Shown here piece by piece: positions 4,059 through 52,750 of a stretch of DNA of 54,356 bases. Position numbers and translations under genes: made by a program. The first letter of the stretch is position 1; each line of letters begins with the position of its first letter. The DNA comes from Candidatus Berkelbacteria bacterium. Its GTDB lineage: Bacteria; Patescibacteriota; UBA1384; 2-12-FULL-50-11. The notes under the pieces are model-generated. The model ran no database searches. It was not told where the DNA came from and saw only the letters and a list, made by a program, of their open reading frames with translations. The DNA is taken from positions 1-54,356 of the forward strand of contig JACRAP010000016.1 of the NCBI GenBank assembly GCA_016213365.1. Direction: 5' to 3'.

Positions 4059-4090
4059 CTTCGACTCACTGCGTTCGCTCAGTGTAAACA
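4059..4090 (+). repeat. REP-like element after tRNA-Leu(CAG)
   Basis: CTTCGACTCACTGCGTTCGCTCAGTG; the core ACTCACT(G/A)CGTTCG recurs at 52364. Confidence 0.6.
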
Positions 4091-4120
4091 CAAGGTGAAG
4101 AGCTAGTAAGATAAATTTAT

Positions 4121-4204
4121 GCGCGAGTGGTGAAACTGGTATACACGCAGCCTTGAGGTGGCTGTGGGAGCAATCCCGTGGAGGTTCAAGTCCTCTCTCG
4201 CGCA
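4121..4204 (+). tRNA. tRNA-Leu(GAG)
   Basis: GCGCGAG...CTCGCGC-A; anticodon arm CAGCC-TT-GAG-GT-GGCTG; variable arm GGGA-GCAA-TCCC. Confidence 0.97.
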
Positions 4205-4383
4205 CTAATTTAGACCCCAAATTGGGGTCTAAATTAGTGCCTGAAATAAGTTGAACCGATTGCCGATAGGCAACTGGTTCAACTGCGAGTTTGCCACAGG
4301 CAAACGAGAAGTCGAGTCCGTATGGACGAGAAATCCGAATTCGCGCACTAATTAACGAGAAATCCGAACTCGCGTACTAATCC
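4198..4383 (+). repeat. multi-hairpin cassette bounded by copies of the tRNA-Leu 3' end
   Basis: TCGCGCACTAATT at 4198 and 4341, degenerate copy at 4370; 17-bp perfect hairpin at 4202-4240 plus three further hairpins. Confidence 0.85.
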
Positions 4384-4419
4384 TTGCACTATTTACATCT
4401 ACTCTATTAAATCAATACA

Positions 4420-5742
4420 ATGCCTATGGTTATGAAAAAACTCATCCCCAAGCAATTAATATTGTTTTATCATTATTTAACAGCTTTACTTGCCGCATTT
4501 TACTATCGGTTCCCCTCAAAAAAAATGATCGTAATCGGTGTAACCGGCACCAAAGGCAAAACCTCAACCATTAACTTTATCTGGTCGTGCTTAACTAGCG
4601 CTGGCAATAAAGTTGGAATAATCAGCACCGCCAATATCAGAATCGGCCACAAAGAAGTACTGAACAAATACCATATGACGATGCCAGGGCGTTTTACAAT
4701 CCAAAAACTAATGAAGCAAATGCTTAACGAGGGCTGTAAATTTTGTATCGTTGAAACAACATCCGAGGGAATAAAACAATTCCGTCATATCGGTATTTAT
4801 TACGATATCGCTGTATTTACAAATTTAACGCCGGAGCATTTAGATTCGCACGGCGGAAGTTTTGAAAAGTATAAACAAACGAAAGCTAAAATGTTTAGCG
4901 CCCTTTCAAAACACCGAAAAATTATCGATGGAAAATTAGTTGAGAAAGTTATCGTCGCCAACGCCGACGACGAGCACGCAAAATACTATTTAAAATTTTC
5001 TTCCGATAAAAAAATCACTTTTTCCCTTAGCGAATCTACTGCGGATGTTGTTGCTAAAAATATAAACGAAACAAAAGATGAAGTTGCTTTTGAGGTTGGT
5101 GATAGTAAATTCAAAATCAAAATACTCGGTAAATTTAATGTATATAACGCCCTTCCGGCGATTATTATTGCACGATTATTTAACGCAAAGGATAAACAAA
5201 TTGAGAATGGCTTAAAAGAACTTACTAAGATTCCGGGACGAATGGAGTTTATTGATAACGATCGAGATTTTTCGGTAATTGTTGATTACGCGCACGAGAA
5301 AGTAAGTTTAACAAACGTACTTGAAGTTGCAAAAAACTTAAAAAAACCAAATTCAAAAATTATTTTATTACTTGGCGCCGAAGGCGGTGGCAGGGACAAA
5401 AGTAAGCGACCGATTATGGGCGAGATCGCTGCTAAAAACGCGGATGTTGTAATTGTTTCCAACGTCGATCCGTACGACGATAAGGCACAACAAATAATTG
5501 AAGATATCGCAGTTTCAGCAGAAAAATTCGGCAAAGTTAGAGATAAAGACATATTTACGATCGAAGATCGACGTTCTGGTATCAATAAAGCATTAAGTTT
5601 AGCAAAATCAGGCGATATAGTTTTAATTACCGGCAAAGGCGCTGAACAATCACTGGTAATAGGTGGCAAAAAAATCCAGTGGGACGATCGTACGGTAACC
5701 AGAGAAGAGCTTGAAAAACTAAGCAAAGCTCGACATTCTTAA
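4420..5742 (+). CDS. murE: UDP-N-acetylmuramyl-tripeptide synthetase (MurE-type Mur ligase)
   Basis: GVTGTKGKTST P-loop, FTNLTPEHLDSHG, PGRME, VDYAH, GGGRDKSKRPIMG and LITGKG motifs. Confidence 0.92.
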   Translation: MPMVMKKLIPKQLILFYHYLTALLAAFYYRFPSKKMIVIGVTGTKGKTSTINFIWSCLTSAGNKVGIISTANIRIGHKEVLNKYHMTMPGRFTIQKLMKQMLNEGCKFCIVETTSEGIKQFRHIGIYYDIAVFTNLTPEHLDSHGGSFEKYKQTKAKMFSALSKHRKIIDGKLVEKVIVANADDEHAKYYLKFSSDKKITFSLSESTADVVAKNINETKDEVAFEVGDSKFKIKILGKFNVYNALPAIIIARLFNAKDKQIENGLKELTKIPGRMEFIDNDRDFSVIVDYAHEKVSLTNVLEVAKNLKKPNSKIILLLGAEGGGRDKSKRPIMGEIAAKNADVVIVSNVDPYDDKAQQIIEDIAVSAEKFGKVRDKDIFTIEDRRSGINKALSLAKSGDIVLITGKGAEQSLVIGGKKIQWDDRTVTREELEKLSKARHS

Positions 5743-5768
5743 TATTCCTCTGATACACTTCTAATAGG

Positions 5769-6530
5769 ATGAACCGAGGTAAAAGAATAGTAATTTTCAG
5801 TTTGCTTGTCTTGGTAACTATTGGAATTCTGGTTTTTCTTTTAGGACCAGGACTTTTTGCTAGCGTTGCCTATCCCCTGCCAGAGAAATATAAAGGTTCG
5901 ATCGCTAAATGGACCAAAGAATACTGCACCGGAATTAGTGATTCGGCACACTTGTTGTCTGGTTTAATTATGGCCGAGAGCGGTTGGCGCGAGGGCGCTG
6001 CTTCTTACGCTGGGGCAATTGGAATGACGCAATTTATCCCCTCAACTGCTGTTGCCGTAGCCGGTCGGCTTGGTATTTCGCCGTTTACGCCAAGTGATTT
6101 AACTAGAGATTCAGATCTTTCTATTAGATTTGGTGCTTATTATATCTGTACTCGAATTAAAGATTACGGCGGAAACGTTAAGCTGGGCTTAATTGCCTAT
6201 AACGGCGGCGGCGGGGCGGTAAATGCGTACCTAGCTGGCACACCCGTAAGTGGTACTGTTGGCTACGCCGATAAGGTTATGCGTCTACAAAGAGCTTACA
6301 AAAGCATCTACGGCGATTGGTGGCGCGATCCCAAGTACGGCGGCGAGCCGATCAATCCAAACGAGCCGTTCGACGTTTTTCCTAAAACCGAAACTTCAGT
6401 AGTTGGAAGCATTTCGATTATTGACTTTTGGCAGGGGTTATTATCTAATGACGATGCGCCCGAAACGGCCGCAACAGAAGAACCGATTAATATTTTCAAT
6501 TTTTGGAAGATATTTATTCCAGGGCAGTAA
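5769..6530 (+). CDS. membrane-anchored lytic transglycosylase (SLT domain)
   Basis: N-terminal TM; catalytic AES, GAIGMTQFIPST and AYNGG motifs. Confidence 0.9.
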   Translation: MNRGKRIVIFSLLVLVTIGILVFLLGPGLFASVAYPLPEKYKGSIAKWTKEYCTGISDSAHLLSGLIMAESGWREGAASYAGAIGMTQFIPSTAVAVAGRLGISPFTPSDLTRDSDLSIRFGAYYICTRIKDYGGNVKLGLIAYNGGGGAVNAYLAGTPVSGTVGYADKVMRLQRAYKSIYGDWWRDPKYGGEPINPNEPFDVFPKTETSVVGSISIIDFWQGLLSNDDAPETAATEEPINIFNFWKIFIPGQ

Positions 6531-6532
6531 TT

Positions 6533-8260
6533 ATGGAAATTATAGAGTTACGAAGGAGATTTTTAGAATTTTTTGAGCAAAAGGGCTACCAAAAGGTCGG
6601 GCCGTCTTCTTTAATACCTCAAAACGACGCTTCGGTATTATTTACAACGGCGGGAATGCAACAATTTAAAGACTTTTATTCTAGTCCAGATTTATCGCCG
6701 TCGCCGAAACTGACAACGGTTCAGCCGGTTATTAGAACCAGCGACATTTCTGAAGTTGGAGACGACACGCACTTAACCAGTTTTGAGATGCTGGGCAATT
6801 TTCGCTTTGGCGAGAAAGATTCGTTTGAAATGAAAAAAATCGCCATAACTGAGGCGTGGGAGTTTATTAATAACACTTTGGGCGTACCGGCAAGTAGGGT
6901 ATACGCGACAGTATTTAAAGATGATGGCTGGGGAGTAAGTGACGACGAAGAGTCTGAAAAAATTTGGAGAGAATTAGGGGTTGAAGTTAAAAAGGCAGGT
7001 AAGGAAGACAATTTTTGGGGGCCAACTGGCGAGGAAGGTCCGTGCGGTCCGACCACCGAAATATATATTGACGGCGTAGAGGTATGGAATTTAGTTTTTA
7101 ATCAGTATTATAAAAAGGTTACTACAGCTGAAACTGCAGGAATAGCCGGTTCAACGGAGGCGGGAGAATATGTAGCGTTAACTCAACAAGGCCTCGATAC
7201 CGGCTCCGGTTTGGAACGCTTAGCCGCAACACTACAAGGCAAAAAATCGGTTTGGGAGATCGAGCCGTTTGCAACTTGGGTGCACTACACCGATCCGACG
7301 ATGCCGCGCCAAAGTCGGATAATTATCGATCACTTACGGGCGATTATTTTCATTGTGAGTGCTGGTATACTACCTGGCAACAAAGGCCGAGAGTATATTT
7401 TACGACGTTTAATTCGTAAAGCGGTTTTCTTAGTCGATCAACTGTCGGTTAGTTTTGCTTGGGACGACGCGATCAAACATATGTCTGCTTATTATCGTGA
7501 TTTTTACCAAATATGCGACGACGAAGAGACGCTGGATGTGATTTTTAACGAAAAAGCCCAGTTCGAGAAAAATATTATTAAAGCCAAGCATTATTTAGAA
7601 AAATGGTTACAACAAAACGTCAGCCCTAGTAGCGAAGAAATAACTAAACTTGCCTTTTATATGTACGAATCGTTTGGTTTTCCAAAAGAATTAGTGATCG
7701 AGCACTTAAGTTCGCTTAGCTACACAGTCGATAACGAATATTTTAGTAATTTATTTTTAGAGCACCAAAAAATTTCCAGATCAGGAATGGAAGGTCAGTT
7801 TAAAGGCGGCTTGGTTGATCATAGCGAGCAAACGATTAAACATCATACCGCTCATCACCTACTACTTGCGGCCTTACGGCAAGTATTGGGAAAAAATGTT
7901 GTCCAAAAAGGATCAAACGTTAGTAGCGAGCGACTGCGAATCGATTTTAATTTCGATCGAAAACTTACCGAGGAAGAACTAAAAGAAATCGAAGAAATTG
8001 TTAACCAAAAAATTAAGGAAGATTTACCGGTAGAGCACAAAGAAATGCCTAAAGAAGAAGCGCTCTCGCTTGGTGCGCAAGCCGAATTCGGCGCAAAATA
8101 CGGCGACGTAGTTTCGGTATACTCGATCGGTGATTTTTCGCTGGAACTTTGCGGCGGACCGCATGTAGACAGAACCGGCCAGTTAGGCCGGTTCGAAATC
8201 CTGAAGGAAGAGGCGTCCAGTCAGGGTGTACGTAGAATAAAAGCAAAATTATATAATTAA
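6533..8260 (+). CDS. alaS: alanine--tRNA ligase, short form lacking the C-Ala domain
   Basis: LFTTAGMQQFK, HLTSFEMLGNF, GPCGP, DTGSGLER; editing motifs HTAHH and ELCGGPH; ATG at 6533 preferred over TTG at 6503. Confidence 0.97.
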   Translation: MEIIELRRRFLEFFEQKGYQKVGPSSLIPQNDASVLFTTAGMQQFKDFYSSPDLSPSPKLTTVQPVIRTSDISEVGDDTHLTSFEMLGNFRFGEKDSFEMKKIAITEAWEFINNTLGVPASRVYATVFKDDGWGVSDDEESEKIWRELGVEVKKAGKEDNFWGPTGEEGPCGPTTEIYIDGVEVWNLVFNQYYKKVTTAETAGIAGSTEAGEYVALTQQGLDTGSGLERLAATLQGKKSVWEIEPFATWVHYTDPTMPRQSRIIIDHLRAIIFIVSAGILPGNKGREYILRRLIRKAVFLVDQLSVSFAWDDAIKHMSAYYRDFYQICDDEETLDVIFNEKAQFEKNIIKAKHYLEKWLQQNVSPSSEEITKLAFYMYESFGFPKELVIEHLSSLSYTVDNEYFSNLFLEHQKISRSGMEGQFKGGLVDHSEQTIKHHTAHHLLLAALRQVLGKNVVQKGSNVSSERLRIDFNFDRKLTEEELKEIEEIVNQKIKEDLPVEHKEMPKEEALSLGAQAEFGAKYGDVVSVYSIGDFSLELCGGPHVDRTGQLGRFEILKEEASSQGVRRIKAKLYN

Positions 8261-8301
8261 CATTGTTTAAACCTGATTTAACTGCTATCTTTTAAAGGAC
8301 A

Positions 8302-9546
8302 ATGAAACTTTTTGGAGGGAAAAAACGTTCCAGTAATTGGGCTATCTCACTCGATATCGGTACCGAATTTGTAAAAGCGTTAATTTTTGAAGTTATTGGA
8401 GGCGTTGGCTACGTTCGCGGCGTTGGTCGAGCCAGACAGCGTTTAAGCGATATGGCTGGCGGTGGCGTAACCGATATTCACGGCGTCGCCCAAAACTGCG
8501 AAACAGCGATCGAACAAGCACTGCAACAATCAAAATTTTTACCGACAAAGGTGATCGTTGGTATCGCCGGTGAGCTTGTAAAAGGTACCACCAACTCAAT
8601 TAAAGTTACTCGTAGTGCCCCAACAACTCAAATTCAAATCACAGAATTACAAGATATCGTCAATAAAGTTCAGGCCGAATCTTTCAAGCGCGCTCGCGCC
8701 GAACTTGCCGCTGAAACAGGGCAAGAATTAATTGACGTTGAATTGGTTAACGCGGCGATTGTGTCTGTTACAATCGACGGCTATAAAGTTTCAAACCCCC
8801 TAAGTTATCAGGGTAAAGAATTATCGGTTGGTGTATACAATTCTTTTGCGCCGATCGTTCAGCTGGGCGCGATCGAAACCGTTGTTCGCGAACTGGGTTT
8901 AGAGTTAATCGCCGTTACTGCCGAGCCGTACGCGGTGGCGCGTTGTTTAAACGAAGAGTCAACAGATTTTGCGGCGATATTTATTGATATTGGCGGCGGC
9001 ACCACAGACGTGGCGGTTGTGCGTAACGGTGGGGTTGAAGGAACGAAAATGTTCGCTCTTGGCGGTCGGGCATTTACGAAAAGAATTTCACTTGCTCTAG
9101 GCGAGTCTTTTGCCGAAGCCGAAAAATCCAAATTATCTTACTCAGCCGGAACGCTTGAAGCAGAGAAAGCCCAACTGGTTAAACACGCTTTAGCATCAGA
9201 TACAAAGGTTTGGCTCTCGGCGCTACAAATTTCTTTAGAAGATTTCGGCGCAACAGATTTATTGCCATCAAAAATACTACTTTGCGGCGGCGGTAGTAAC
9301 CTACCAGAAATAATGCAAATATTAAGAACGAGCGAGTGGGCAAAAGAATTACCGTTTGCCAAAACCCCAGAAGTTCAATTTATTAAGCCCAGCGATGTCG
9401 CTTCAATGCGCGACGAAACCGGTATGCTTAAAAATATAGACGAGGTTACACCGCTTGCGCTTGCAAATGTGGCCTTAGACTTATTGGGTAATTCGGGTAT
9501 CCTAGAAACAGTTATGCGTAAAGCGATCGAAGGAATAAAGAAATAA
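8302..9546 (+). CDS. FtsA-like actin-family ATPase
   Basis: LDIGTEFVK, AEPYA, IDIGGGTTD and LCGGGSNL actin-fold motifs; no ftsZ adjacent. Confidence 0.85.
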   Translation: MKLFGGKKRSSNWAISLDIGTEFVKALIFEVIGGVGYVRGVGRARQRLSDMAGGGVTDIHGVAQNCETAIEQALQQSKFLPTKVIVGIAGELVKGTTNSIKVTRSAPTTQIQITELQDIVNKVQAESFKRARAELAAETGQELIDVELVNAAIVSVTIDGYKVSNPLSYQGKELSVGVYNSFAPIVQLGAIETVVRELGLELIAVTAEPYAVARCLNEESTDFAAIFIDIGGGTTDVAVVRNGGVEGTKMFALGGRAFTKRISLALGESFAEAEKSKLSYSAGTLEAEKAQLVKHALASDTKVWLSALQISLEDFGATDLLPSKILLCGGGSNLPEIMQILRTSEWAKELPFAKTPEVQFIKPSDVASMRDETGMLKNIDEVTPLALANVALDLLGNSGILETVMRKAIEGIKK

Positions 9547-11267: not shown

Positions 11268-11692
11268 GATTATTAGGACTTGACGTTGGTAGTAAGAAAA
11301 TTGGTGTAGCAGTGGGTGAAACGATTGGAAACGAGTTAACTACGATAATTGCGCCAAAAGACGATAACTTCTACAGCTCAAGCGGTTATAATTACGCAGA
11401 GCAAGAAATTTCTAAAATATTACGGGAGGAAGAGGCGCAAGCAATCGTTGTTGGTTTACCAGTGAACGAACAAGGACATCATACCGAGGAATCTGCAAAA
11501 ATTGAAAAATTTGCTGAAAAATTGAAATCACAGTTAAAAATCGATATTTATTTCGTCGACGAAACCTTAACAAGTTTCATGGCCGATGAAATGTTAGAAT
11601 CGCAAGGGATCGATCCGCAAGAACGAAAACAACGGGTTCATCAGCTAGCGGCAGAGTTAATTTTGGAACAATACCTAGAGGATGCAAGGTAG
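11264..11692 (+). CDS. ruvX: YqgF/RuvX family nuclease
   Basis: LGLDVGSKKIGVA, IVVGLP and VDETLTS motifs. Confidence 0.93.
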   Translation: MRLLGLDVGSKKIGVAVGETIGNELTTIIAPKDDNFYSSSGYNYAEQEISKILREEEAQAIVVGLPVNEQGHHTEESAKIEKFAEKLKSQLKIDIYFVDETLTSFMADEMLESQGIDPQERKQRVHQLAAELILEQYLEDAR

Positions 11693-12596
11693 AAAGATTT
11701 TTGTTCGTATTTTTATCGTATTTTTTCTAATTACAACTATTTTTATTGTTTATTTTTATACACTCTTACAGAGCGCGACAACCAAATCTGTCTCTAAGGC
11801 CTTTGAAGTTAAGGAAGGTGATAGTACGGCTGTAATTGCCAGTAAATTACAACAAAAAGGTTTAATAAAAAGTGCGTTTGCCTTTAGGGTATATAAGCAA
11901 ATTTCTGGCTCTATTTTAGTGCCGGGTGTTTATGTAATCGATTCATCCGAAAATGTTTCGAGTATTTTGAACACGATCGCTAAAGGAAAAAGTAGCGTAA
12001 TAAAAGTTACTCTACTTGAAGGATGGCGCGCAAAGGATATTGAAGAGTATATGGTGAACGAAAAGGGGCTAAGCCAATTTATCGGGTTTACTAAAAAAGC
12101 TGAAAAATACGAAGGGTATCTGTATCCAGACACTTACGAAATTTTATTAATTATTACGCCCGATGAGTTCATTAAGTTACTGCGCGATACGTTTGTAACT
12201 AAAACGAAATCCTTAAACCCAACGAGCGATCAAGTAATTTTAGCGTCAATTATCGAGCGCGAAGCGGCGAGCGACAGCGAACGAGCAGATATTGCTGGAG
12301 TGTACACTAACAGACTTAAAATAGGTATGCGACTTGAGGCCGATCCAACGATTCAGTACGCCAAGGGAAACTGGCAGGCGGTAACATTAGCAGAGTACCG
12401 ATCAGTAATATCACCGTATAATACTTATTTAAACGACGGCTTACCGCCAACGCCGATCGCCAACCCTAGCGTTAAAAGTATCGAAGCGGCGATTAATCCA
12501 GCAAAACACAACTATTATTTTTTCTTTCACGCAAACGGTAATATCTATTTCTCAAAAACCCTAAGTGAGCATAAGGAAAAACTAAAAAGTCTTTAG
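11682..12596 (+). CDS. mltG: endolytic transglycosylase MltG
   Basis: EGYLYPDTY, LASIIERE, NRLKIGMRLEADPT and SPYNTY..GLPPTPIANP motifs. Confidence 0.96.
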   Translation: MQGRKIFVRIFIVFFLITTIFIVYFYTLLQSATTKSVSKAFEVKEGDSTAVIASKLQQKGLIKSAFAFRVYKQISGSILVPGVYVIDSSENVSSILNTIAKGKSSVIKVTLLEGWRAKDIEEYMVNEKGLSQFIGFTKKAEKYEGYLYPDTYEILLIITPDEFIKLLRDTFVTKTKSLNPTSDQVILASIIEREAASDSERADIAGVYTNRLKIGMRLEADPTIQYAKGNWQAVTLAEYRSVISPYNTYLNDGLPPTPIANPSVKSIEAAINPAKHNYYFFFHANGNIYFSKTLSEHKEKLKSL

Positions 12597-12598
12597 AA

Positions 12599-13680: not shown

Positions 13681-14459
13681 GACGAAAGAATACACGATTA
13701 ATAATTATAGTACTGGTGATATTGGCAATTATATTAATCCAATTACCATTTTTTTCTACTTTTAGAGACAAGATAAGAATTGTAATCAGCACGCCTGCTC
13801 GAATAATTAACAGCTCATTTCAATCAGTTAAAAGTAATATAAAAACTATCAGTAATATCGACACGATCGTTAAAGAAAATTCTGAATTACGAGAACAGTT
13901 ATTATTTACTAACGCTAGAATTGCAGAGCTTCAAACTGTTTTACAGGAAAACATCCGATTAAGAGAAGATCTGAAGTTTAGCCAATCTAGGCCGGAGATA
14001 AACTTAGTGCCAGCAAAGATTGTAAATTTCTCACCAAGCGGTGCGTATCAAGCAATTACGATAGGTTTAGGTAGCGAAGACGGTATTAAAGAAGGTCAGG
14101 CGGTAATTTCACAAGGGTTTTTAATCGGTAAAGTAAAAAATGTCTCAGTAAAAACGGCTGAAGTTTGGCTACTTACTAATCGAAACGTTATAACCCCCGT
14201 TAGGTTAACAAATAGTCAGACTACGGGACTATTAAAGGGGGGAATACGTGGTTTGGTAGTTGATAATATCCCTGTTGATACTAAAGTTGCAAAAGGCGAG
14301 TTAGTTGTAACGTCATCACTTGAGGGGCTTTATCCGGAAGGGATAGCGATCGGCGAAGTAATAGATATTATTCACAGAGAAGAAGAAATTTTTATCACCT
14401 TAAGGATTAGCACCCCAATAAATATTAGTTCAATAACATATGTTTTTATAGTTAAATAA
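13677..14459 (+). CDS. mreC: rod shape-determining protein MreC
   Basis: TM, coiled coil (ENSELRE, ENIRLRE) and beta domain (VVTS...YPEGIAIG); operon position. Confidence 0.95.
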   Translation: MRRKNTRLIIIVLVILAIILIQLPFFSTFRDKIRIVISTPARIINSSFQSVKSNIKTISNIDTIVKENSELREQLLFTNARIAELQTVLQENIRLREDLKFSQSRPEINLVPAKIVNFSPSGAYQAITIGLGSEDGIKEGQAVISQGFLIGKVKNVSVKTAEVWLLTNRNVITPVRLTNSQTTGLLKGGIRGLVVDNIPVDTKVAKGELVVTSSLEGLYPEGIAIGEVIDIIHREEEIFITLRISTPINISSITYVFIVK

Positions 14460-41261: not shown

Positions 41262-41301
41262 GCGCTCGTAGCTTTTCGCCGGCTGGCGAAGGTAGAGCAC
41301 T
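41262..41301 (+). repeat. duplicated tRNA-Val 5' end with a hairpin inserted in the D-loop
   Basis: GCGCTCGTAGCT[TTTCGCCGGCTGGCGAA]GGTAGAGCACT versus tRNA GCGCTCGTAGCT[CAGC]GGTAGAGCACT. Confidence 0.9.
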
Positions 41302-41306
41302 ATCTT

Positions 41307-41378
41307 GCGCTCGTAGCTCAGCGGTAGAGCACTTCCTTGACGTGGAAGGGGTCTTCAGTTCGATCCTGAACGGGCGCA
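41307..41378 (+). tRNA. tRNA-Val(GAC)
   Basis: GCGCTCG...CGGGCGC-A; anticodon arm CTTCC-TT-GAC-GT-GGAAG; CCA not encoded. Confidence 0.96.
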
Positions 41379-41485
41379 CATGAAAGGAGAAATAAGGATC
41401 GAACAGTTCGATATCGAGCGAAGCATTGCTAAGCGAGATATCCCAGCAAAGATTTTGCTGGGATCCTGAACGGGCGCACATGAAA
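41362..41485 (+). repeat. palindromic cassette flanked by a 24-bp direct repeat of the tRNA-Val 3' end
   Basis: GATCCTGAACGGGCGCACATGAAA at 41362 and 41462; internal hairpins TCGAAC/GTTCGA and CCCAGCAAA/TTTGCTGGG. Confidence 0.92.
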
Positions 41486-46922: not shown

Positions 46923-46951
46923 TAATATAATACTAACACAGTTACTAACAA

Positions 46952-46980
46952 TTGACTTTTACTAAATTTTATGGTATAAA
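46952..46980 (+). promoter_or_regulatory. tmRNA promoter
   Basis: TTGACT-N17-TATAAA with TG extension. Confidence 0.7.
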
Positions 46981-46989
46981 TCGGTCATT

Positions 46990-47373
46990 GGGCCTGTTAT
47001 GGCTTCGACGGGAACGTTTACAACTAAATTGGCAAGCGGACGTATCTGCCTTAGAGTACACCAAATACGTGCAAACGCATTTGAAAATGCAAAAGCTCGC
47101 GTAGCAAACTTGTTTGCTGCTCCTGCATTTGCGCCAGCAGTAGCTTAACAGCTCACTGCCGTCTTGTTGCTTGACTCCTACTGGAGTAGCAAGGCGTCAT
47201 ATTAGTAGGATAGGAGTTCGGCCCAATTCGACCAAATTCCAAAATTAAGAATTTGCCTCGGTGTGTGTTTTGTTTGTTTTAAGCCCACCGAATAAGATTT
47301 AAACAACCTACGCTTGTAGAAGATTTAGTTCGTTCGTTTTCGGACAGCGGTTCGACTCCGCTCAGGTCCACCA
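46990..47373 (+). ncRNA. ssrA: tmRNA
   Basis: 5' GGGCCTG...TTCGAC; 3' GGACAGCGGTTCGACTCCGCTCAGGTCCACCA with G3.U70 pair; tag frame 47071-47148 ANAFENAKARVANLFAAPAFAPAVA*. Confidence 0.96.
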
Positions 47374-47376
47374 AAA

Positions 47377-49617
47377 TTATATCCTGCTTCTTTTAAGTAA
47401 TAACGAATTCAATACAACTGAAATAGAGCTGGCTGCCATTGCGGCAGAGGCGAATATTGGACTTAATAGAATTCCCCAAACTGGAAACAAAACTCCAGCG
47501 GCCACGGGAATCAATAACGTGTTATAGCCAAAAGCCCAAATCAAGTTCATTTTTATTGTCCGCATTGTTTGGCGGCTTAAACGGATAGCGGTGGCAAGAC
47601 TGCGCAAATCCTTGTTAATTAGGGTGATATCGGCGGCTTCGATAGCTACGTCGGTTCCCGATCCCATCGCAATGCCGTTATCAGCCGCGGCCAGCGCTGG
47701 CGCGTCGTTAATGCCGTCGCCGACCATGGCGACGTGCAAACCCCGCTGTTGAAGTTTGCGAATTTCGGCTTCTTTATCTTGTGGCAACACTTCCGCTAAC
47801 ACATCACCTGGTTCAATTCCCGCTTCTTTGGCAATAGCTTGGGCGACTCGCTGATTATCGCCCGTAATCATAAATACACGCAGACCCAAGGAACGTAGCT
47901 CTTTAACAGCATCTTTGGAAGTGGGACGGATCGTATCCGCCACCGCGACGATACCAGTTGCCGTATTATTAATACCCACAAGCATAGCCGTTTTACCTTC
48001 TGTTTCTAATCTTTCCATTTCCTTCTCCTGTTCATTGGAGAGTGCGATACCTGTTTGTATGAATAGTTTTCGGTTGCCAATTACAATTGTTTCTTGGCCT
48101 ACTTTTGCTCGAACACCGTGGCCGGAAATTGCCTCGAAATCAGTAGCTTTAAGTAGCTCAATCTTTTTGTCGTTAGTACCGTTAACTATTGCAGTTGCCA
48201 GCGAGTGTTCGGATAAACTTTCGACACCAGCGGTTTTGGCTAGAAGCTCTTTTTCAGTTCCGAGCCATGTTACCACATCAGTTAAAAGCGGTTCGCCGTT
48301 GGTTAGCGTTCCGGTCTTATCAAAAACAATCGCGTTAACTTTATAGGCGGTTTCGAGCGACTCGGCATTTTTTATTAAGATGCCCTTTTCAGCTCCCCGT
48401 CCAGTTCCAACCATAATTGCCGTTGGTGTTGCTAAACCCATCGCGCACGGACAAGCGATAATTAATACTGTCACCATAGTTAGGAGCGAATAGGTTAGTT
48501 GTGGGGCGGGGCCAAAAACGTACCAAACTACAAAGGTTGCGATCGCAATCATAATAACAATCGGTACAAAATACGACGAAATTAAATCTACTAACCGCTG
48601 AATAGGAGCTTTGGATCCTTGTGCTTCTTCAACAAGTTTAATAATTTGCGCCAACATCGTTTCTGAACCGACTTTTTCAGCTACGAATGTAAAACTACCG
48701 GTCTTGTTGATAGTTGCGCCGATCACAGTGTCGCCGACTTTTTTTGTGACAGGGATAGATTCACCGGTCACCATCGATTCATCAACGCTAGAAGTCCCTT
48801 CGATTAACTTGCCGTCGACAGGGATTTTCTCGCCAGGTCGAACTAGTATTTTATCGCCGTGAATAACCTGTTCTATCGGCAAATCTAACTCCTTGCCGCC
48901 ACGGATTACACGAGCAGTTTTTGCCTGCAGGTTCATCAGTTTTTTAATTGCCTGACTCGTGCGCTTTTTAGCCACTGCTTCCAGGTATCTTCCCAATAGA
49001 ATTAAGGTGATAACAATAACTGAAACATCAAAGTACGGCATAGTTTCGACGCCAAGCGCCCCCAAGGATCCCGGGAAGAAGGCAATAAACGCCGAATAGA
49101 GGTAGGCGACACTGGTTCCCAAGGCAATCAAGGTATCCATATTGGCGTTGCGATGAATCAGGGATTTCCAGGTGCTGGTGTAAAATTGCCAACCGGCCCA
49201 GAACTGAATCGGTGTGGCTAACAGTAGTTGAAAATAAAAGTTTTTAATAATCGCTGGCGCAAAATCAATTAATCCCGGGAGCGTTCCCCACATTACAATT
49301 AGCCCAACGATAGCCCCGGCAATGATTTTTGGTTTGAGGAGTTTTAATTCTCTTTCGCGCATCATTTCTTGGTGGTCGTGGTGCATGTCAGCGGCTTTAA
49401 CGGCTTTATAACCAGTCCGATTGACCGCTTCTTCTAAATCGGCTCTTTTAGAGATGTTTTGATCATAGGTAACAACTGCCTTACCAGTCGCTAAATTGAC
49501 GTTCGCTTCTTGGACACCCGGTACTTTATTAAGAGAGCGCTCGATCATGTGAACACAACTGGCGCAGTGCATACCGTCGATATCTATCACTTCCTTTTTA
49601 GTTTCAATTTGACGCAT
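47377..49617 (-). CDS. copA: Cu(I)-translocating P1B-type ATPase
   Basis: MHCASC metal-binding domain; [22 protein letters not shown] and MAASS motifs. Confidence 0.96.
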
Positions 49618-49730
49618 TAATGATGGTGCTCCTCGTTATTATTTCGGTCTTTTTTGCCTAAGAAAAACCAATAAGTTAAGAAAATTAACAATAATCCTAC
49701 TGCGATAACAATTATTTTGTCGCTAGACAT
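49617..49730 (-). CDS. 37-aa single-TM peptide with His tail, missing from the ORF track
   Basis: [37 protein letters not shown]; overlaps the upstream stop and the copA start (TAATG). Confidence 0.75.
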
Positions 49731-49938
49731 ATGGAACCGCCTTATATCCACTAATATTCTCTATCGCTTCGATTAATTCTTCAGAATTGATTTTACTTTC
49801 ATCAAATTCAATTGTGGCCGTTTTACGTATCGGGTCTACTTTAATATTATTTACAAATTCAATTTCATCTTCTATTTCTTCGAGCAACATCACACAACTA
49901 CTGCAATGAATTTCTGGGATGTAATATTTAGCAACCAT
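49723..49938 (-). CDS. HMA-domain copper chaperone (CopZ-like)
   Basis: IHCSSC motif, 71 aa, C-terminal GY. Confidence 0.9.
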   Translation of the reverse strand: MVAKYYIPEIHCSSCVMLLEEIEDEIEFVNNIKVDPIRKTATIEFDESKINSEELIEAIENISGYKAVPYV

Positions 49939-50975
49939 TATTTAAAAACAATCCTTCCTGTGTACATGCCCATCGAACAACTAAATCTTAACGTTCCAGT
50001 TTGGGCCGGAATTTCTATTGACTCAGTACCGTCTTGTGGCAAAATTAATTGAATTCCCAGTTCGGGAATTGTAAAGGCGCGACTACAGCTATACACGTTA
50101 TTAGATTTTAACTTTATTGTTGTGGGCGTATTTGCTTTTGCCTCGATATTATTTGGTGAGTAACCGTAATCTAGAACATCTATCTCAATTATTTGCCCTT
50201 TTTGGGCGGGAGTAGTCTTGGTAATTTTTGGGGTTTCTTTATTTTTATTGTTTAAATAGCTTTGTTTGGCGTTAGCAAATGAAACAGGGGAACCCATTAA
50301 ATTTAACGAAGATTCAAGCGAGATTAATCCAAATATAAGAATAATAAGCGCAATTATGCGCACAAATTGTTTATGTAAATTTTCGCCGAGTTTTGTTGTA
50401 AAATATGCCAAGATAAAAAATACTGGACTGGCGCCAAGAGTGAACGCAAACATTATTAACGCTCCGTAGAGTGGATTGGCAGTGCCAATTGCAAGTAGCA
50501 TCATTGCTTGGGTTATTCCGCAGGGGATTAATACTGTTAATCCCCCTAAAAATACAGGGGTAATATAATCACGTTTTGAATTCTTGCTGAATTGACGGAT
50601 AAATTTCCGGATAAACTTTGGGGGTTGAAGATAAAAAATATTGAAGATCGGATGGACATTTAACATTCGTAGGCCTGTTCCGATCATAAAAACAGCAATT
50701 ACTAACAAAAGGATCGCCCGGGCGATCGGACCAAGCTGTAGCATCGTTCCAAACCAACCAAGTAATAATCCTAGTAATGTATAAACAAATATTTTTGCAA
50801 TTAAAAATAAAGAGATCGCGAAAATCGACTCGTTATTTTTATTAAAATTATCTTGTTGCTGGGAGTCGGTTGCTTCTTTTGCGATTACATTTGCCAGTAA
50901 TCCGCCCTGTACTGCTAAACAACTCAACCCGCCCGTGGTTAAACCAGTTAAAAATATCAGCCAAATATTTGGCAT
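49938..50975 (-). CDS. DsbD_2/TauE-like membrane protein with C-terminal cupredoxin-like domain
   Basis: SCLAVQGG and LIPCG in the TM region; GYSPN...C...FSCSMGMYTG at the C-terminus. Confidence 0.88.
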   Translation of the reverse strand: MPNIWLIFLTGLTTGGLSCLAVQGGLLANVIAKEATDSQQQDNFNKNNESIFAISLFLIAKIFVYTLLGLLLGWFGTMLQLGPIARAILLLVIAVFMIGTGLRMLNVHPIFNIFYLQPPKFIRKFIRQFSKNSKRDYITPVFLGGLTVLIPCGITQAMMLLAIGTANPLYGALIMFAFTLGASPVFFILAYFTTKLGENLHKQFVRIIALIILIFGLISLESSLNLMGSPVSFANAKQSYLNNKNKETPKITKTTPAQKGQIIEIDVLDYGYSPNNIEAKANTPTTIKLKSNNVYSCSRAFTIPELGIQLILPQDGTESIEIPAQTGTLRFSCSMGMYTGRIVFK

Positions 50976-51304
50976 TACTGACTCCTACTTTCGGATAATT
51001 CCTTGATTAAGTTCTGGGTAAATTGATTTTTCTCAAGCGAATAGTAAACAGTTTGAGCTTGTTTATTTGAGCTTAAAATATTTACGGCTTTTAATTTTTT
51101 TAACTGTCTTGAGGCGGCAGAAACCGATAATCCAACTAACGAGGCGATCTCACTTACGGACAATTCGGGGTGATTTCTAAAAAGATAGCAAATCTTCATT
51201 GCACTTGGGTCGCCGATGGTGCCGTGTCGCTCGGCGCAAGCACTAACAGCTTCGTTATTAGCCAGTTCTGATCTTATTTTTTGGTAATCTTTATTTGCAC
51301 CCAT
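50975..51304 (-). CDS. ArsR/SmtB-family transcriptional repressor
   Basis: SVSEIA...SAASRQL..L and VYYSL winged HTH; ATG at 51304 preferred because the TTG at 51340 is the -35 box. Confidence 0.88.
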   Translation of the reverse strand: MGANKDYQKIRSELANNEAVSACAERHGTIGDPSAMKICYLFRNHPELSVSEIASLVGLSVSAASRQLKKLKAVNILSSNKQAQTVYYSLEKNQFTQNLIKELSESRSQ

Positions 51305-51340
51305 ATGCAAATAATATACAAATTCGTATTTGCGTGTCAA
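51291..51340 (-). promoter_or_regulatory. copper operon promoter and operator
   Basis: TTGACA-N18-TATTAT-N6-ATG; inverted repeat TTATTTGCA-N6-TGCAAATAA at 51291-51314 and further CAAATA half-sites. Confidence 0.65.
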
Positions 51341-51392
51341 GGAAAATACAAATAATTACAAAAATTAACGAAAAAAAGGGTATAATACAGCC

Positions 51393-52343
51393 ATGGAAAC
51401 AATACTAAAAAATAAATTGATCGCAGTAATTATAGTGCTACTACTAATGACAATGGCTGGGTGCGTAATTTGGTATGGCACTAAAAATGCAAGTAATACC
51501 GATAATCAACAAAACAATAATCAAAAAACAAATAACACTCCAACTCCTACGCCTGACGACCCAACCAAGCCAACAAACAACACCACAACTGTAAAAATTT
51601 ATTTTAGCAAAACCGGCGACACCGATTGCTCTAAAGTTTACGCCATTAACCGCACAATTCCAAAGACTACCATGATCGGAACCGCCGCCCTAAATCAACT
51701 TTTTAAGGGGCCAACTGATACCGAAAAAACTAACGGCTATACTTCTTTATTTAGTTCTAAAACAGCCAATATTTTAAACTCACTTCAAGTTACAAACGGC
51801 GTCGCTTATGTAAATTTGAAAGATATCCGAACCCTTATTCCAAGCGCTTCAAGTAGCTGTGGTAGTGCTCAATTTATCGCCGAAGTTGAAAGTACTTTAG
51901 AGCAATTTAATACCGTTAAAAAGGTGGTAAATGCGATCGATAGCGATGTTGAAAAGTTTTACGAGTGGGTTCAAATTGGTTGCCAGATTAGTAACAATTT
52001 GTGCGAAAATGCACCACTAAAAACCAACTTAGTTAAAGTAACTTCGCCTAGAAGTAGCGCAAAGATTTCAAGCCCTGTTAGTATTACCGGCGAGGCGCGC
52101 GGTAGCTGGTTTTTCGAAGCAAGTTTTCCGATTAAAATAGTTGACGAGCAAGGTAAAGTAATCGGTAGCGGTATTGCAACTGCAACTAGCGACTGGATGA
52201 CATCGAACTTCGTGCCGTTTACTGCTAATATCAGCTTTACAGCTCCAGCTACAACTTATGGCGCGATTATCCTGGAGAGGGATAATCCTTCAGGCCTTGC
52301 GATTAATGACGATAGTGTGAGGGTGTTTGTTAGATTTAAATAA
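51393..52343 (+). CDS. membrane-anchored GerMN plus Gmad2 Ig-like domain protein
   Basis: VKIYF, AL..L.KGPT..E...GY and TL.QF.TV (GerMN); ITGEARG.WFFEASFPI and LERDNPSG (Gmad2). Confidence 0.85.
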   Translation: METILKNKLIAVIIVLLLMTMAGCVIWYGTKNASNTDNQQNNNQKTNNTPTPTPDDPTKPTNNTTTVKIYFSKTGDTDCSKVYAINRTIPKTTMIGTAALNQLFKGPTDTEKTNGYTSLFSSKTANILNSLQVTNGVAYVNLKDIRTLIPSASSSCGSAQFIAEVESTLEQFNTVKKVVNAIDSDVEKFYEWVQIGCQISNNLCENAPLKTNLVKVTSPRSSAKISSPVSITGEARGSWFFEASFPIKIVDEQGKVIGSGIATATSDWMTSNFVPFTANISFTAPATTYGAIILERDNPSGLAINDDSVRVFVRFK

Positions 52344-52344
52344 T

Positions 52345-52537
52345 TTGCGCCCCGGGAGGGAATACTCACTACGTTCGTTTCCCTCCCGGCAATCAAAAAA
52401 CGCACGGACAAGCCGTACGTTTTTCAATTTGCGCCCCGGGAGGGAATAACCTCACCTTGTTCGGTTTTCCCTCCCTCTAGGGCAACAAAAAACGTGTGAT
52501 CAAGTCACACGTTTTCCGTTGCGCCCCGGGAGGGAAT
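52345..52537 (-). repeat. tandem array of tRNA-Arg 3'-end repeats with hairpin spacers
   Basis: TTGCGCCCCGGGAGGGAAT at 52345, 52429 and 52519 (the last is the tRNA itself); periods 84 and 90 nt. Confidence 0.92.
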
Positions 52538-52595
52538 CGAACCCCCGACCTTGACGTTAGAACCGTCTTGCTCTAATCCGCTGAGCTACCGGGGC
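52522..52595 (-). tRNA. tRNA-Arg(TCT)
   Basis: Reverse strand GCCCCGG...CCGGGGC-G; A20 present; anticodon loop GT-TCT-AA. Confidence 0.92.
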
Positions 52596-52750
52596 AATAT
52601 ACAGGGCGTGTTTCTAATAAAGTACGTAGTGCGCTCGGCTCTTATTTGTGCCCTGTTTATTATGGCACAAACAGAGCCTTCCGTTCGGCAGTTGCTGGCC
52701 GTCCACCGGACGCCCAGCTGATGCTGCCTCATGCTGAGCTACCGGGGCAA
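52580..52750 (-). repeat. palindromic cassette flanked by an 18-bp repeat of the tRNA-Arg 5' end
   Basis: GCTGAGCTACCGGGGCAA at 52580 and 52733, with two long imperfect hairpins between. Confidence 0.9.

Follow-up and report, generated by a model that had tools for sequence, protein, structure and literature searches.

Hairpin-rich cassettes framed by copies of tRNA ends in the genome of a Candidatus Berkelbacteria bacterium

Results

Duplicated tRNA ends at the Leu, Val and Arg loci

We analysed a window of 54,356 nt, the whole stretch taken from contig JACRAP010000016.1 of a Candidatus Berkelbacteria bacterium whose genome (G000) is 94% complete. The tRNA genes were located with ARAGORN and Rfam, and both agreed with a preliminary description of this DNA. 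That description had reported duplicated tRNA ends beside hairpin-rich units at Leu(GAG), Val(GAC) and Arg(TCT), which we confirmed: the cassettes span 45-155 nt and are bounded by copies of the tRNA's own ends. The features are as follows.

3976-4059, plus strand: tRNA-Leu(CAG)
4057-4084, minus strand: class I G.A hairpin, 28 nt, core CGAACGCAGTGAG at 4064-4077 on the minus strand
4121-4205, plus strand: tRNA-Leu(GAG)
4205-4237, no strand assigned: 33-nt palindrome (opposite-strand self-match), a terminator-like hairpin directly 3' of tRNA-Leu(GAG)
4250-4283, plus strand: hairpin A, inverted T-loop-like arm GTTGAACC paired with direct arm GGTTCAAC
4286-4330, plus strand: two CGAG-hairpin-CGAG modules (4286-4308 and 4313-4330) with an AAGT linker
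4331-4381, plus strand: two diverged tRNA-Leu(GAG) 3'-end stubs with TAAT flank (4331-4352 and 4360-4381)
41262-41301, plus strand: tRNA-Val 5' stub, tRNA positions 1-12 (41262-41273) and 17-27 (41291-41301)
41307-41379, plus strand: tRNA-Val(GAC)
41380-41461, plus strand: 82-nt cassette with three hairpins (41396-41415, 41410-41442, 41442-41462)
41462-41485, plus strand: Val 3' stub, exact 24-nt copy of 41362-41385
52345-52428, minus strand: Arg downstream unit 2, terminator hairpin 52395-52424, 3' stub 52345-52363
52429-52520, minus strand: Arg downstream unit 1, terminator hairpin 52487-52515, 3' stub 52429-52447
52521-52595, minus strand: tRNA-Arg(TCT)
52596-52750, minus strand: Arg upstream cassette, preceded by 5' stub 52733-52750; strong fold (-56.4 kcal/mol)

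At Leu(CAG), the closing stem of the class I hairpin (CACT/AGTG) includes the last 3 nt of the tRNA. Downstream of tRNA-Leu(GAG), the 3' stubs come after the CGAG-hairpin-CGAG modules, whose CGAG ends could pair as C-G, G.A, A.G and G-C. Each stub matches the real end plus flank (4188-4209) at 17 of 22 positions by hand count, and a 14-nt repeat lies at 4326 and 4355 in the stub region. The same module also occurs downstream of Met, Asp, Gln and Lys tRNAs.

The 24-nt repeats at Val, which frame the 82-nt cassette, run from the T-loop to the tRNA end and on through a 6-nt flank, ATGAAA, the start of the downstream ORF. The cassette hairpin at 41410-41442 contains GAGCGAAGC; upstream of the gene, a hairpin at 41274-41290 replaces the D-loop and thereby splits the 5' stub. 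The 19-nt 3' end of tRNA-Arg (52519-52537) is repeated at 52429-52447 and 52345-52363, and its 5' end (52580-52597) at 52733-52750. Downstream unit 1 has a palindromic T-arm hairpin with a degenerate core (52438-52475), and unit 2 a hairpin (52354-52387) carrying the core CGAACGTAGTGAG.

In run X1, separate Logan contigs span the Val and Arg cassettes, including the Val 3' stub and the Arg upstream cassette, with 0 differences, and none of the X1 contigs listed showed a joint skipping a cassette. Since X1 is probably the source sample of the assembly, this bridging is not independent data.

Genome-wide distribution of tRNA-end copies

In this ultra-small groundwater bacterium, about half of the tRNA genes adjoin a hairpin-rich insert framed by a spare tRNA-end copy. 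A same-strand self-copy, 12 nt or longer and no more than 400 nt away, accompanies 17 of 38 tRNAs (45%), well above the 61 of 2000 random 75-mers used for comparison. Copies of the 5' half lay upstream in 11 cases and downstream in 1, and copies of the 3' half lay downstream in 10 and upstream in 0, a strict polarity. Direct repeats that are exact, 14 nt or longer and spaced 25-300 nt apart numbered 56, against 3, 3 and 0 in Markov controls; for 37 of the 56, a tRNA or tmRNA gene was no more than 500 nt away. The tRNA-end copying is real and larger than first noted.

The stubs are 13-27 nt long, break in the T-loop, D-loop or anticodon loop, and form arrays of up to three, at Lys(CTT); repeat spacings were 45-155 nt and never kilobases. 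Two Met tRNAs have tandem duplicates of 98 and 140 nt. Most stubs in this genome match the functional ends exactly, which points to recent events or to gene conversion still under way, even though the genome has no small GIY-YIG gene. The same architecture is found at a 5S rRNA 3' end, with stubs downstream of the gene, and at the start of one protein gene, so that the original designation of the elements as tRNA-targeted proved too narrow.

Such stubs could be remnants of tRNA-targeted integrative elements, attL and attR left after deletion of the body and sometimes stacked by serial integration, as the arrays at Lys(CTT) might suggest. The 3' stubs run from the T-loop or anticodon loop to the tRNA end, reportedly the classical identity block of tRNA-targeting integrases in the account of Williams from 2002. 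Tyrosine integrases leave 3'-segment direct repeats of this extent, restoring the gene and leaving a fragment. Integration-derived tRNA fragments are common in prokaryotes (PMC9897764). However, no integrase or element body lies between the repeats here, the spacing is about 100 nt, upstream 5' stubs are as common as 3' stubs (11 versus 10), and 5S rRNA and protein genes are targeted too. The repeats also reach into host-specific flank (ATGAAA at Val), and the cassettes share conserved hairpin modules, unlike random phage DNA. The genome has a single Xer-like tyrosine recombinase, unlinked to any cassette. We therefore regard this origin as improbable. Even further from the data is the earlier suggestion of decoy att sites that divert tRNA-targeting phages. 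Extra T-loop-to-3'-end blocks do exist beside the real genes, but phages could still integrate into the real gene, where the tRNA is usually restored in any case, and the idea accounts neither for 5' stubs nor for the copies at 5S rRNA and at the protein gene. No prophage or integrase was seen at any such site. Nothing speaks for this proposal, and we give it almost no weight.

A conserved G.A hairpin core

The cassettes share a core, CGAACG-N-AGTGAG, at the top of a G.A-rich hairpin whose closing stem covaries. The core is exact on the minus strand at 4064-4077 and 52364-52377; of the other sites assigned to it earlier, 52451 is a degenerate variant, and 41415, 4285 and 4313 are related G.A hairpins. 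All five core motifs in this genome lie within 360 nt downstream of a tRNA, and the G.A mini-hairpin pattern is denser in the tRNA zone (17 in 28,961 bp) than elsewhere (43 in the other 530,966 bp). Across the class, the core had 56 matches in 38 of 162 genomes, compared with 2 for a reversed control. In 25 sequences, 88% of closing-stem cells were paired, versus 21-37% when the stem was slid, and 33 double-change cells were counted; shuffles gave 10.8, and none of the 500 went above the observed number. The modular order is kept across genera: GGTTCGA, CGAG/CGAC, G.A hairpin, (C)GAG, spacer, CGAG, hairpin and a final CGAG, after which come the 3' half of the T-loop and the rest of the tRNA as far as its 3' end. 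This recurrence and the shared hairpin modules support a real, related, non-autonomous family built on a G.A/GNA mini-hairpin core, as had been proposed.

The class I hairpin forms solely on the strand antisense to the tRNA. The core often lies directly past the tRNA 3' end on the opposite strand, and 9 of 13 hits within about 100 nt downstream of a tRNA are on that strand. With its structure-forming strand often antisense to the tRNA, the core is consistent with recognition in single-stranded form.

REP/BIME elements with RAYT and the Rickettsia palindromic elements are small, structure-conserved, sequence-variable palindromes, and they resemble the present cassettes as small palindromic elements dispersed in a reduced genome. 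Here, however, copy number is low, the tie to gene ends is strict and target duplications are long. The tail described as REP-like at Leu(CAG) is one conserved 28-nt hairpin. No Y1 transposase was found in G000.

The tRNA-linked repeats (TLRs) of E. coli (Egan and Landy 1978; Rudd 1999) are the closest published counterpart: 22 units at ten loci, among them the RrA/RrB/RrF sRNAs, lying right after tRNA or 5S rRNA genes, sometimes in tandem, with 3' ends that repeat the last 18-19 bp of the gene (PMC8144298). Here 45% of tRNAs are affected, upstream 5' stubs are equally common, a protein-gene start is included, and the cassettes have a conserved G.A-hairpin module, turnover between congeners and, in relatives, nuclease genes in the same slots.

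The cassettes could likewise be functional RNA modules, co-transcribed by read-through and then acting as sRNAs, processing signals or terminator modules. Tiny RNAs might be excised by tRNA-processing enzymes, because inverted and direct 3'-end copies form a minihelix like an acceptor/T-stem. Three TLRs are processed sRNAs (PMC8144298), the stubs here are of similar kind (13-27 nt, 5S rRNA gene included), the units fold to closed multi-hairpin shapes, and long-variant cassettes downstream of tRNAs are all sense-oriented. Against this, most units sit behind an intrinsic-terminator-like hairpin, the antisense bias of the class I hairpin and of the near-tRNA hits is unfavourable, cassettes upstream of genes are found in either orientation, congeners differ by gain and loss of sites, same-site cassettes are unrelated between genera, and the units match no Rfam family. 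We consider an RNA function unlikely.

Turnover in related genomes

Presence/absence variation, expected from the preliminary description, was seen at the Val, Arg(TCT) and Leu(CAG) orthologous sites. The Val site is empty in five relatives (G016, G009, G012, G013 and G001) and filled by unrelated cassettes in G000 and in G002/G010; by eye, the Arg(TCT) site is empty in 6 of 10 relatives and filled in differing ways in 4. Congeners differ at Leu(CAG): G010 lacks the cassette and stub, together about 120 nt, that G002 carries there, and the core of this cassette is identical to that at G002's own Leu(GAG).

Some stubs derive from other alleles. The Ile(UAU) 5' stub of G000 matches the functional allele of G010 at 34 of 35 positions versus 29 of 35 for its own, and the Ile(GAU) 5' and 3' stubs of G001 pair 7 of 7 acceptor-stem positions together versus 5 of 7 with the resident halves. 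At Arg, the stubs in G018 and G007 read CGGGGGC where the functional gene has CGAGGGC, and by eye 5 differences separate the protein-start stub on contig C14 from the real start, all of them at third codon positions.

Candidate enzymes

The mobilising enzyme had been placed outside the window; we found no candidate in the window or in the 94%-complete genome, where searches for a small GIY-YIG gene, a LAGLIDADG protein match, Cas1 and RT were negative. Among 19 family genomes, 7 encode small GIY-YIG ORFs (15 in total), whose products are single-domain proteins of about 80-140 aa. Seven of the 15 ORFs follow a tRNA or tmRNA gene on the same strand at a distance of 47-228 nt. In G013 the order is tRNA-Lys, hairpin cassette, stub, GIY-YIG ORF and stub, with the ORF bounded by tRNA-end copies. 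The G.A mini-hairpin flanks only 5 of the 15 ORFs examined; its pattern occurs 7 times in the 9,000 bp around these ORFs versus once in the 33,021 bp further out. In G005 and G011 a LAGLIDADG ORF starts 3 nt past tRNA-Leu(CAG). Of the enzymes named in the preliminary description, small GIY-YIG nucleases are encoded at the same tRNA/tmRNA-end positions in relatives, RAYT/HUH was not found, and the one tyrosine recombinase is unlinked. The cassettes need no resident nuclease, because G010 and G001, whose only GIY-YIG hit is UvrC-sized, have 10 self-copy tRNAs each.

The Ssn GIY-YIG nucleases (Chenal et al. 2025; PMC11893778) are likewise small single-domain proteins, with flanking NTS/SRM hairpin repeats of 20-50 nt recognised as ssDNA, and their hairpin-gene-hairpin arrangement is that of an insertion sequence. 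In contrast, the published SRM pattern is not enriched in G000 (2 matches versus 0-3 in shuffles), the hairpins here have tandem G.A steps and a GNA loop with 1-5 core copies per genome, and the elements sit at gene ends, which they duplicate; the word tRNA has 0 occurrences in the available text of the Ssn paper. Phage T4 SegB is a free-standing homing endonuclease of intronless homing in a tRNA gene cluster: a GIY-YIG gene among or beside tRNA genes, polymorphic for site presence and inherited non-reciprocally with its flanks (PMC2330249). Our cassettes, by contrast, have no coding capacity and bring along a second copy of the target-gene end, and the putative nucleases of relatives are the short single-domain proteins described above.

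Discussion

The cassettes could be a host mutational by-product: stable-RNA genes are prone to hairpins and heavily transcribed, and template switching or slippage there would give inverted and direct partial duplications, which would persist because small genomes lack palindrome-removing functions. The units are palindromes of an inverted plus a direct gene-end copy, tandem duplicates exist at the two Met tRNAs, and no mobilising enzyme was found in G000. This account leaves unexplained the conserved covarying non-tRNA core in 38 genomes, the stubs from foreign alleles and the nuclease ORFs in the same slots, and it seems to us quite doubtful.

We instead give a probability of about 0.5 to the view that homing-like cassettes overwriting gene ends form a Patescibacteria-wide family, and that the units are members of it without coding capacity or its recent relics. 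A cassette would sit at the end of a highly conserved gene (tRNA, tmRNA, 5S rRNA and some protein genes) and bring a replacement copy of that end, so that the gene stays intact, while the displaced original would persist as a stub beyond the cassette. Its flanks would be homologous to adjacent parts of the uninterrupted target on both sides, and recombination or gene conversion could therefore place a copy in any allele that is still empty. The G.A-rich DNA hairpins, CGAACG-N-AGTGAG and CGAG-stem-CGAG, would mark the cassettes, and we infer that small single-domain GIY-YIG nucleases, encoded by relatives at the same positions, would recognise them as single-stranded DNA and drive homing-like spread by cut-and-repair. 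The cassettes of G000 would be passively inherited and recombined, or mobilised in trans. Classical homing gives no explanation for a partial duplication at insertion, and our literature search found no published description of tRNA-end cassettes in Patescibacteria. The cassettes look like the footprints of a selfish process that repeatedly overwrites the ends of conserved genes.

Hairpin cassettes bounded by copies of tRNA ends

The window forms an entire contig of a 560-kb, 23-contig, 94%-complete genome (G000), and the nearest labelled relatives of one G000 protein were Saccharibacteria/Patescibacteria MAGs. ARAGORN called eight stable-RNA genes in the window, in agreement with Rfam: Gly, Cys, Leu(CAG), Leu(GAG), Glu, Val(GAC), tmRNA and Arg(TCT). 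The genes discussed here, each found by both programs, are as follows.

3976-4059, tRNA-Leu(CAG)
4121-4205, tRNA-Leu(GAG)
41307-41379, tRNA-Val(GAC)
46990-47373, tmRNA
52521-52595, minus strand, tRNA-Arg(TCT)

We read three of the tRNA regions and located their pieces, which bore out the preliminary description of hairpin cassettes bounded by duplicates of the tRNA's own ends. At tRNA-Val(GAC), a 24-nt segment (41362-41385) that starts in the T-loop, reaches the end of the tRNA and takes in the adjoining ATGAAA is repeated exactly at 41462-41485; an 82-nt cassette made of three hairpins separates it from this second copy, the spare gene end (stub). A tandem duplication alone was ruled out at this site because the repeat is 24 nt and not the whole flank. 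Upstream of the same gene, copies of tRNA positions 1-12 and 17-27 occupy 41262-41301, and a hairpin replaces the D-loop. The Val cassette (41380-41463) opens with a copy of the ATGAAA of the downstream ORF, which gives a 27-codon open frame (ATGAAAGGAG...) ending in the stub; the true start of the downstream ORF is 41480, not the TTG at 41426 that was listed mechanically.

Two further copies of the 19-nt 3' end lie downstream of tRNA-Arg(TCT), at 52429-52447 and 52345-52363. In front of each stand a terminator-like hairpin and a second hairpin, in which the T-arm/acceptor 3' strand pairs with its inverted copy; upstream of the gene, the 5' end is copied at 52733-52750. The 3' side of tRNA-Leu(GAG) carries, in order, a palindrome (4205-4237), a hairpin in which an inverted T-loop-like arm pairs with a direct one (4250-4283), a pair of CGAG-hairpin-CGAG elements (4286-4330) and two diverged stubs of the tRNA 3' end and flank (4331-4352 and 4360-4381). 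The sole element at tRNA-Leu(CAG) is a 28-nt hairpin (4057-4084, minus strand) that begins within the last 3 nt of the tRNA; it belongs to the G.A-rich class I hairpins, which contain the core CGAACG-N-AGTGAG. The spacer between the two Leu genes (4061-4120) is 61 nt in G000, 12 nt in G010, 16 nt in G001 and 2-3 nt in G016, G003, G007 and G008, and the extra DNA of G000 consists of the class I hairpin and about 35 nt of A/T-rich sequence. The tmRNA (tag ANAFENAKARVANLFAAPAFAPAVA) was free of cassette and stub.

The Val and Arg cassettes showed 0 differences from Logan contigs of sequencing run X1, which is probably the sample of origin, so that this agreement supports the assembly only. Among the joints listed, which come from contigs only, none skipped a cassette; a second run, X2, from a relative at 0.17 of words, had no coverage of the tRNA loci.

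Distribution of gene-end copies and hairpins in the genome

Self-alignment around every tRNA of G000 revealed the end duplications proposed earlier well beyond the window. Same-strand self-copies of at least 12 nt within 400 nt were found at 17 of 38 tRNAs, compared with 61 of 2000 random 75-mers. Their placement was polar: copies of 5' halves lay upstream in 11 cases and downstream in 1, and copies of 3' halves downstream in 10 and upstream in 0. Genome-wide, exact direct repeats of 14 nt or more, spaced 25-300 nt apart, numbered 56, versus 3, 3 and 0 in Markov-shuffled controls; 37 of the 56 were within 500 nt of a tRNA or tmRNA, and the spacings of the whole set ranged from 29 to 294 nt. 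Two other genera of the family carried self-copies as well, at different tRNAs (10 of 34 tRNAs examined in G010; 10 of 36 in G001).

The hairpin motif was likewise more frequent near tRNAs than elsewhere. All five cores in G000 lie within 360 nt downstream of a tRNA, and a looser G.A mini-hairpin pattern occurred 17 times in the 29-kb tRNA zone versus 43 times in the other 531 kb (60 in the whole genome, versus 45-54 in shuffles). A generic 'Y-GA-stem-GA-R' definition, barely enriched genome-wide (370 versus 300-324), was dropped for the tighter patterns.

A shared architecture with a covarying G.A hairpin

The downstream units of three genera follow a common plan. A unit often starts with a terminator hairpin, followed by an inverted copy of the tRNA T-arm/acceptor 3' strand, then GGTTCGA (the T-stem 5' strand plus half of the T-loop) and CGAG or CGAC. 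The middle holds a C-GA-RY-GNA-RY-GAG-G hairpin, a 4-6-nt spacer and CGAG-hairpin-CGAG, and the end supplies the other T-loop half and the 3' strands of T-stem and acceptor. Since CGAG pairs with CGAG as C-G, G.A, A.G and G-C, the hairpins alternate Watson-Crick and tandem G.A steps. The mini-hairpin variants (GCGAAGC, ACGTAGT, ATGTAAT, GCGTTAGC and ACGTTAGT) represent compensatory changes, which supports the GNA-minihairpin idea. In a short variant, seen in Arg unit 2 and Lys(CTT) unit 3, CGAACG-N-AGTGAGT stands alone between the inverted and the direct tRNA arms. That the units are by-products of template switching seems improbable to us.

Across the class, the core gave 56 matches in 38 of 162 genomes, and the reversed pattern gave 2. 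Thirty-one matches in 30 loci were fetched, and 13 of these were no more than about 100 nt downstream of a tRNA called by ARAGORN, 9 of them on the strand opposite the tRNA and 6 of those 9 just 5-7 nt past the tRNA end. Such opposite-strand sites near the tRNA end read tRNA-CCA-TTCG-ACTCACTTCGTTCG-CTCATGG. On the G/A-rich strand the core forms a hairpin whose four closing pairs covary in an alignment of 25 sequences. The closing-pair cells were paired in 88% of cases, versus 21-37% with the partner slid, and 33 cells were altered on both sides, versus 10.8 in shuffles (0 of 500 shuffles reached 33); the structure was derived from the same 25 sequences, some of them kin and so not independent, and the inner pairs are set by the search pattern and are uninformative.

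When read on the strand of the tRNA, the class I hairpin has C.T in place of its tandem G.A steps, so the structure forms only in ssDNA or in an antisense transcript. Rfam, applied at gathering thresholds to the window and at E-value thresholds to 17 loci, returned tRNA, tmRNA, rRNA, RNase P and group I intron matches and no described RNA family over the cassettes. We also observed a small palindrome, CCGCCA(A/G)CTGGCGG, which may represent a separate mini-hairpin family: it is present in several G000 cassettes (window 41274-41290, CGCCGGCTGGCG, at Val; contig C7 around 9745, C5 around 8020 and C6 around 62700) and in a distant relative (G040, locus L009).

Turnover between relatives

Comparison with relatives revealed presence/absence variation at the Val, Arg(TCT), Leu(GAG) and Leu(CAG) sites. 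The Val site is empty, with the tRNA directly abutting the ATG of the downstream ORF, in G016, G009, G012, G013 and G001; it is filled by the 82-nt cassette in G000, by an unrelated cassette of 50 nt, bounded at the same point of the T-loop, in G002 and G010, and by another insert in G018. By eye, both sides of the Arg(TCT) site are empty in 6 of the 10 relatives shown, and the other 4 are filled in four different ways. The 3' side of Leu(GAG) is filled in 2 of 12 relatives shown. At Leu(CAG), G002 has a cassette and stub of about 120 nt that are absent from its congener G010; the core of this cassette is identical to the one behind Leu(GAG) of G002, and the two tRNAs have the same T-arm, a pattern suggestive of homology-based copying into a second target.

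Some stubs carry foreign alleles. Upstream of tRNA-Ile(UAU) in G000, 5' halves ending at the anticodon loop lie at -190, -115, -65 and -15, and the last three have a 50-nt period (a 35-nt half plus a 15-nt spacer). The stub nearest the gene matches the functional tRNA of G010 at 34 of 35 positions, versus 29 of 35 for the gene of G000 itself. This tRNA, with anticodon UAU, was present in all three genomes examined (G000 C7 9675-9889; relatives at L013 and L047) and is the most heavily stacked site; at least three of the four 5' halves in G000 are recognisable, and their acceptor stems differ. At Ile(GAU) of G001, the upstream 5' half and the downstream 3' half pair at 7 of 7 acceptor-stem positions, versus 5 of 7 with the resident halves; judged by this pairing, a complete new gene has split an older or foreign one. 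In G018 and G007, the Arg stubs show an acceptor variant that belongs to other lineages. In G000, by contrast, the majority of stubs do not differ from the resident gene, pointing to recent events or gene conversion.

Targets other than plain tRNA ends

Behind the 5S rRNA gene on C15 (Rfam) lie a CGAG-hairpin cassette, a 27-nt repeat of the 5S 3' end and, in addition, a 26-nt copy of the gene's flank. On C14, the start of a protein gene (a 345-aa frame, perhaps TsaD/Kae1 from the look of its N-terminus) is preceded by a stub of the promoter-proximal 35 nt of the ORF and two TTTCGAG-hairpin-CGAG-AACTC-CGAG cassettes; by eye, stub and real start differ at five sites, all third codon positions. 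Because a 5S rRNA gene and a protein-gene start are affected, the process is not tRNA-specific. Similar cassettes, inverted, lie upstream of tRNA-Phe and of a group-I-intron-containing tRNA missed by ARAGORN. The latter gene, on C7, is split by the intron at about 13918-14174 (L076 719-975; Rfam 74.7 bits) and has a 26-nt upstream repeat besides its cassette, which is of one family with that upstream of tRNA-Phe. The end of C6 (62864-63007) and the start of C13 (1-170) lie within one tRNA-Gln cassette; the other Gln tRNA, on C5, is followed by a cassette about 85% identical to it.

Candidate enzymes

The preliminary description had envisaged spread by an enzyme acting in trans and proposed a check for co-occurrence with RAYT/HUH, GIY-YIG or tyrosine recombinase genes. 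GIY-YIG genes did accompany cassettes in relatives, though not in G000; Y1 (HUH) transposase (PF01797) had 0 matches in G000, and a recombinase was present there but unlinked. This single Phage_integrase-family gene (C5, about 20.3-21.2 kb) is Xer-like by domain make-up, with no cassette adjoining. Searches of G000 for Cas1/casposase (PF01867) gave 0 matches, and no reverse transcriptase (RVT_1) was found. Its sole GIY-YIG match was in a 539-aa, UvrC-sized frame, with no small GIY-YIG gene.

Fifteen small GIY-YIG ORFs (79-139-aa frames; domain confirmed for two) occurred in 7 of 19 genomes of the family, 7 of them on the same strand and 47-228 nt downstream of a tRNA or tmRNA. The array in G013 (L115) runs from tRNA-Lys through a terminator, a long-variant hairpin cassette and a stub to the GIY-YIG ORF, which a further stub follows. 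In G015, G013, G006 and G007, a tmRNA-type 3' end and the nuclease gene are separated by a class I hairpin or by a degenerate version of it; in G013, G015 and G006 this end is that of the tmRNA, and the gene is small and YhbQ-like. Around the 15 ORFs, the 9.0 kb of flanking DNA contained 7 matches to the G.A mini-hairpin pattern, versus one in 33 kb farther out, and the pattern lay within 300 nt of the ORF at 5 of 15 loci only. Across the class, 158 of 162 genomes had GIY-YIG matches, with a maximum of 18 per genome. NCBIfam returned a weak group-I-intron-endonuclease match for 1 of 4 small GIY-YIG proteins and no other family name.

In G005 and G011, a LAGLIDADG ORF starts 3 nt past tRNA-Leu(CAG), the exact place of the class I hairpin of G000, which has no match to this protein. 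The ORF (217-225 aa, Pfam LAGLIDADG_3) lies between tRNA-Leu(CAG) and tRNA-Leu(GAG) (L171 836-1486 in G005; L174 814-1488 in G011).

Comparison with known systems

The closest published description is that of the E. coli tRNA-linked repeats (TLRs): tRNA or rRNA genes at ten loci are followed by 22 such units, and every unit closes with 18-19 bp that exactly repeat the 3' end of the gene before it (PMC8144298). Here too, units directly follow tRNA and 5S rRNA genes and end in exact copies of the gene's end, of 13-24 nt for tRNAs and 27 nt for 5S rRNA. Apart from three sRNAs, TLRs have no known function (PMC8144298). A TLR-like RNA function of the present units appears unlikely.

Fragments of tRNA genes left by integrating elements are well known (PMC9897764), and a direct repeat of the tRNA 3' block, as in attL/attR, is present here, with copies starting at positions 56-61, or 34-35 for Ile (T-loop or anticodon loop). 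However, no integrase lies inside or beside the repeats, the lone Xer-like gene of G000 being without an adjoining cassette, and spacings of 29-294 nt leave no room for a kilobase-sized element. We regard integrase remnants as improbable, and the earlier alternative, decoy att sites for phages, as hardly credible.

REP/BIME elements with RAYT, or PATEs derived from IS200/IS605, require a Y1 (HUH) transposase, which had 0 matches in G000. An IS200/IS605-type model, prompted by many left junctions after YCGA, was rejected because the transposase is absent; as a second ground, this family, to our knowledge, makes no long target duplication. CRISPR-like or casposon integration, with its ruler-type long target duplication, lacks its Cas1/casposase gene in G000. 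MITEs have terminal inverted repeats and 2-10 bp target duplications, whereas the repeats here are 13-33-nt gene-end copies, and by eye no terminal inverted repeat is common to the cassettes. Ssn systems pair a single-domain GIY-YIG gene with flanking hairpin repeats; such an arrangement is absent from G000, and the published SRM consensus was at chance there (2 matches versus 0, 3, 1, 1 and 1 in shuffles). Intronless homing is exemplified by T4 SegB (PMC2330249), a GIY-YIG homing nuclease encoded among clustered tRNA genes. Its presence/absence polymorphism at one site is matched at Val, Arg(TCT), Leu(GAG) and Leu(CAG); a nuclease ORF within the cassette is absent from the window and present in relatives (GIY-YIG in G013, L115; LAGLIDADG in G005 and G011). 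Full-text searches, which covered the main text of openly available articles, returned no account of tRNA-end-duplicating hairpin cassettes in CPR/Patescibacteria.

Interpretation

A family of gene-end-overwriting cassettes is the simplest account covering all these observations, and we give it about even odds (roughly 0.5). The insert would arrive with a replacement copy of a conserved gene's end; as this end is supplied, the gene survives, with the old end persisting as a stub. The insert would then be flanked by two segments that are contiguous in the uninterrupted allele, and such flanking homology would make it copyable into empty alleles by recombination. With a nuclease cutting empty alleles, this copying would become homing, and the hairpins may act as recognition elements, by analogy with Ssn nucleases and their NTS/SRM hairpins (PMC11893778). 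As regards co-conversion of flanking target, foreign-allele stubs occur at the Ile and Arg loci, and most G000 stubs match the resident gene. Against gene-end overwriting with homing, G000, G010 and G001 have cassettes without a small nuclease gene, hairpins lie near a third of the nuclease genes only, no cleavage or transfer event was observed, and the origin of the partial duplication is left unaccounted for.

More tentatively, and with the balance of probability against it, Patescibacteria may harbour a genetic drive of hairpin-marked mini-cassettes whose autonomous form would be small single-domain GIY-YIG nucleases acting on ssDNA, such as DNA taken up by naturally competent cells. Alleles from relatives would thereby be written repeatedly over tRNA, tmRNA, 5S rRNA and conserved protein genes, either at their ends or in full, leaving dead gene ends in ordered stacks as a record of past alleles, and E. 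coli TLRs would be relics of a like process.

In practical terms, stubs confuse tRNA annotation and cassettes break assemblies, as at the C6/C13 Gln cassette; stub stacks could also be an archive of past alleles. The genetic drive, if real, would be previously undescribed in Patescibacteria. It would give a natural role to their many tiny GIY-YIG genes, an origin to the long-unexplained E. coli tRNA-linked repeats, and a new hairpin/nuclease pair possibly useful for ssDNA cutting. The most conserved genes of these ultra-small bacteria would then be hot spots of selfish recombination-based turnover, with tRNA alleles moved between lineages and nearly half of the tRNA loci shaped by the process.
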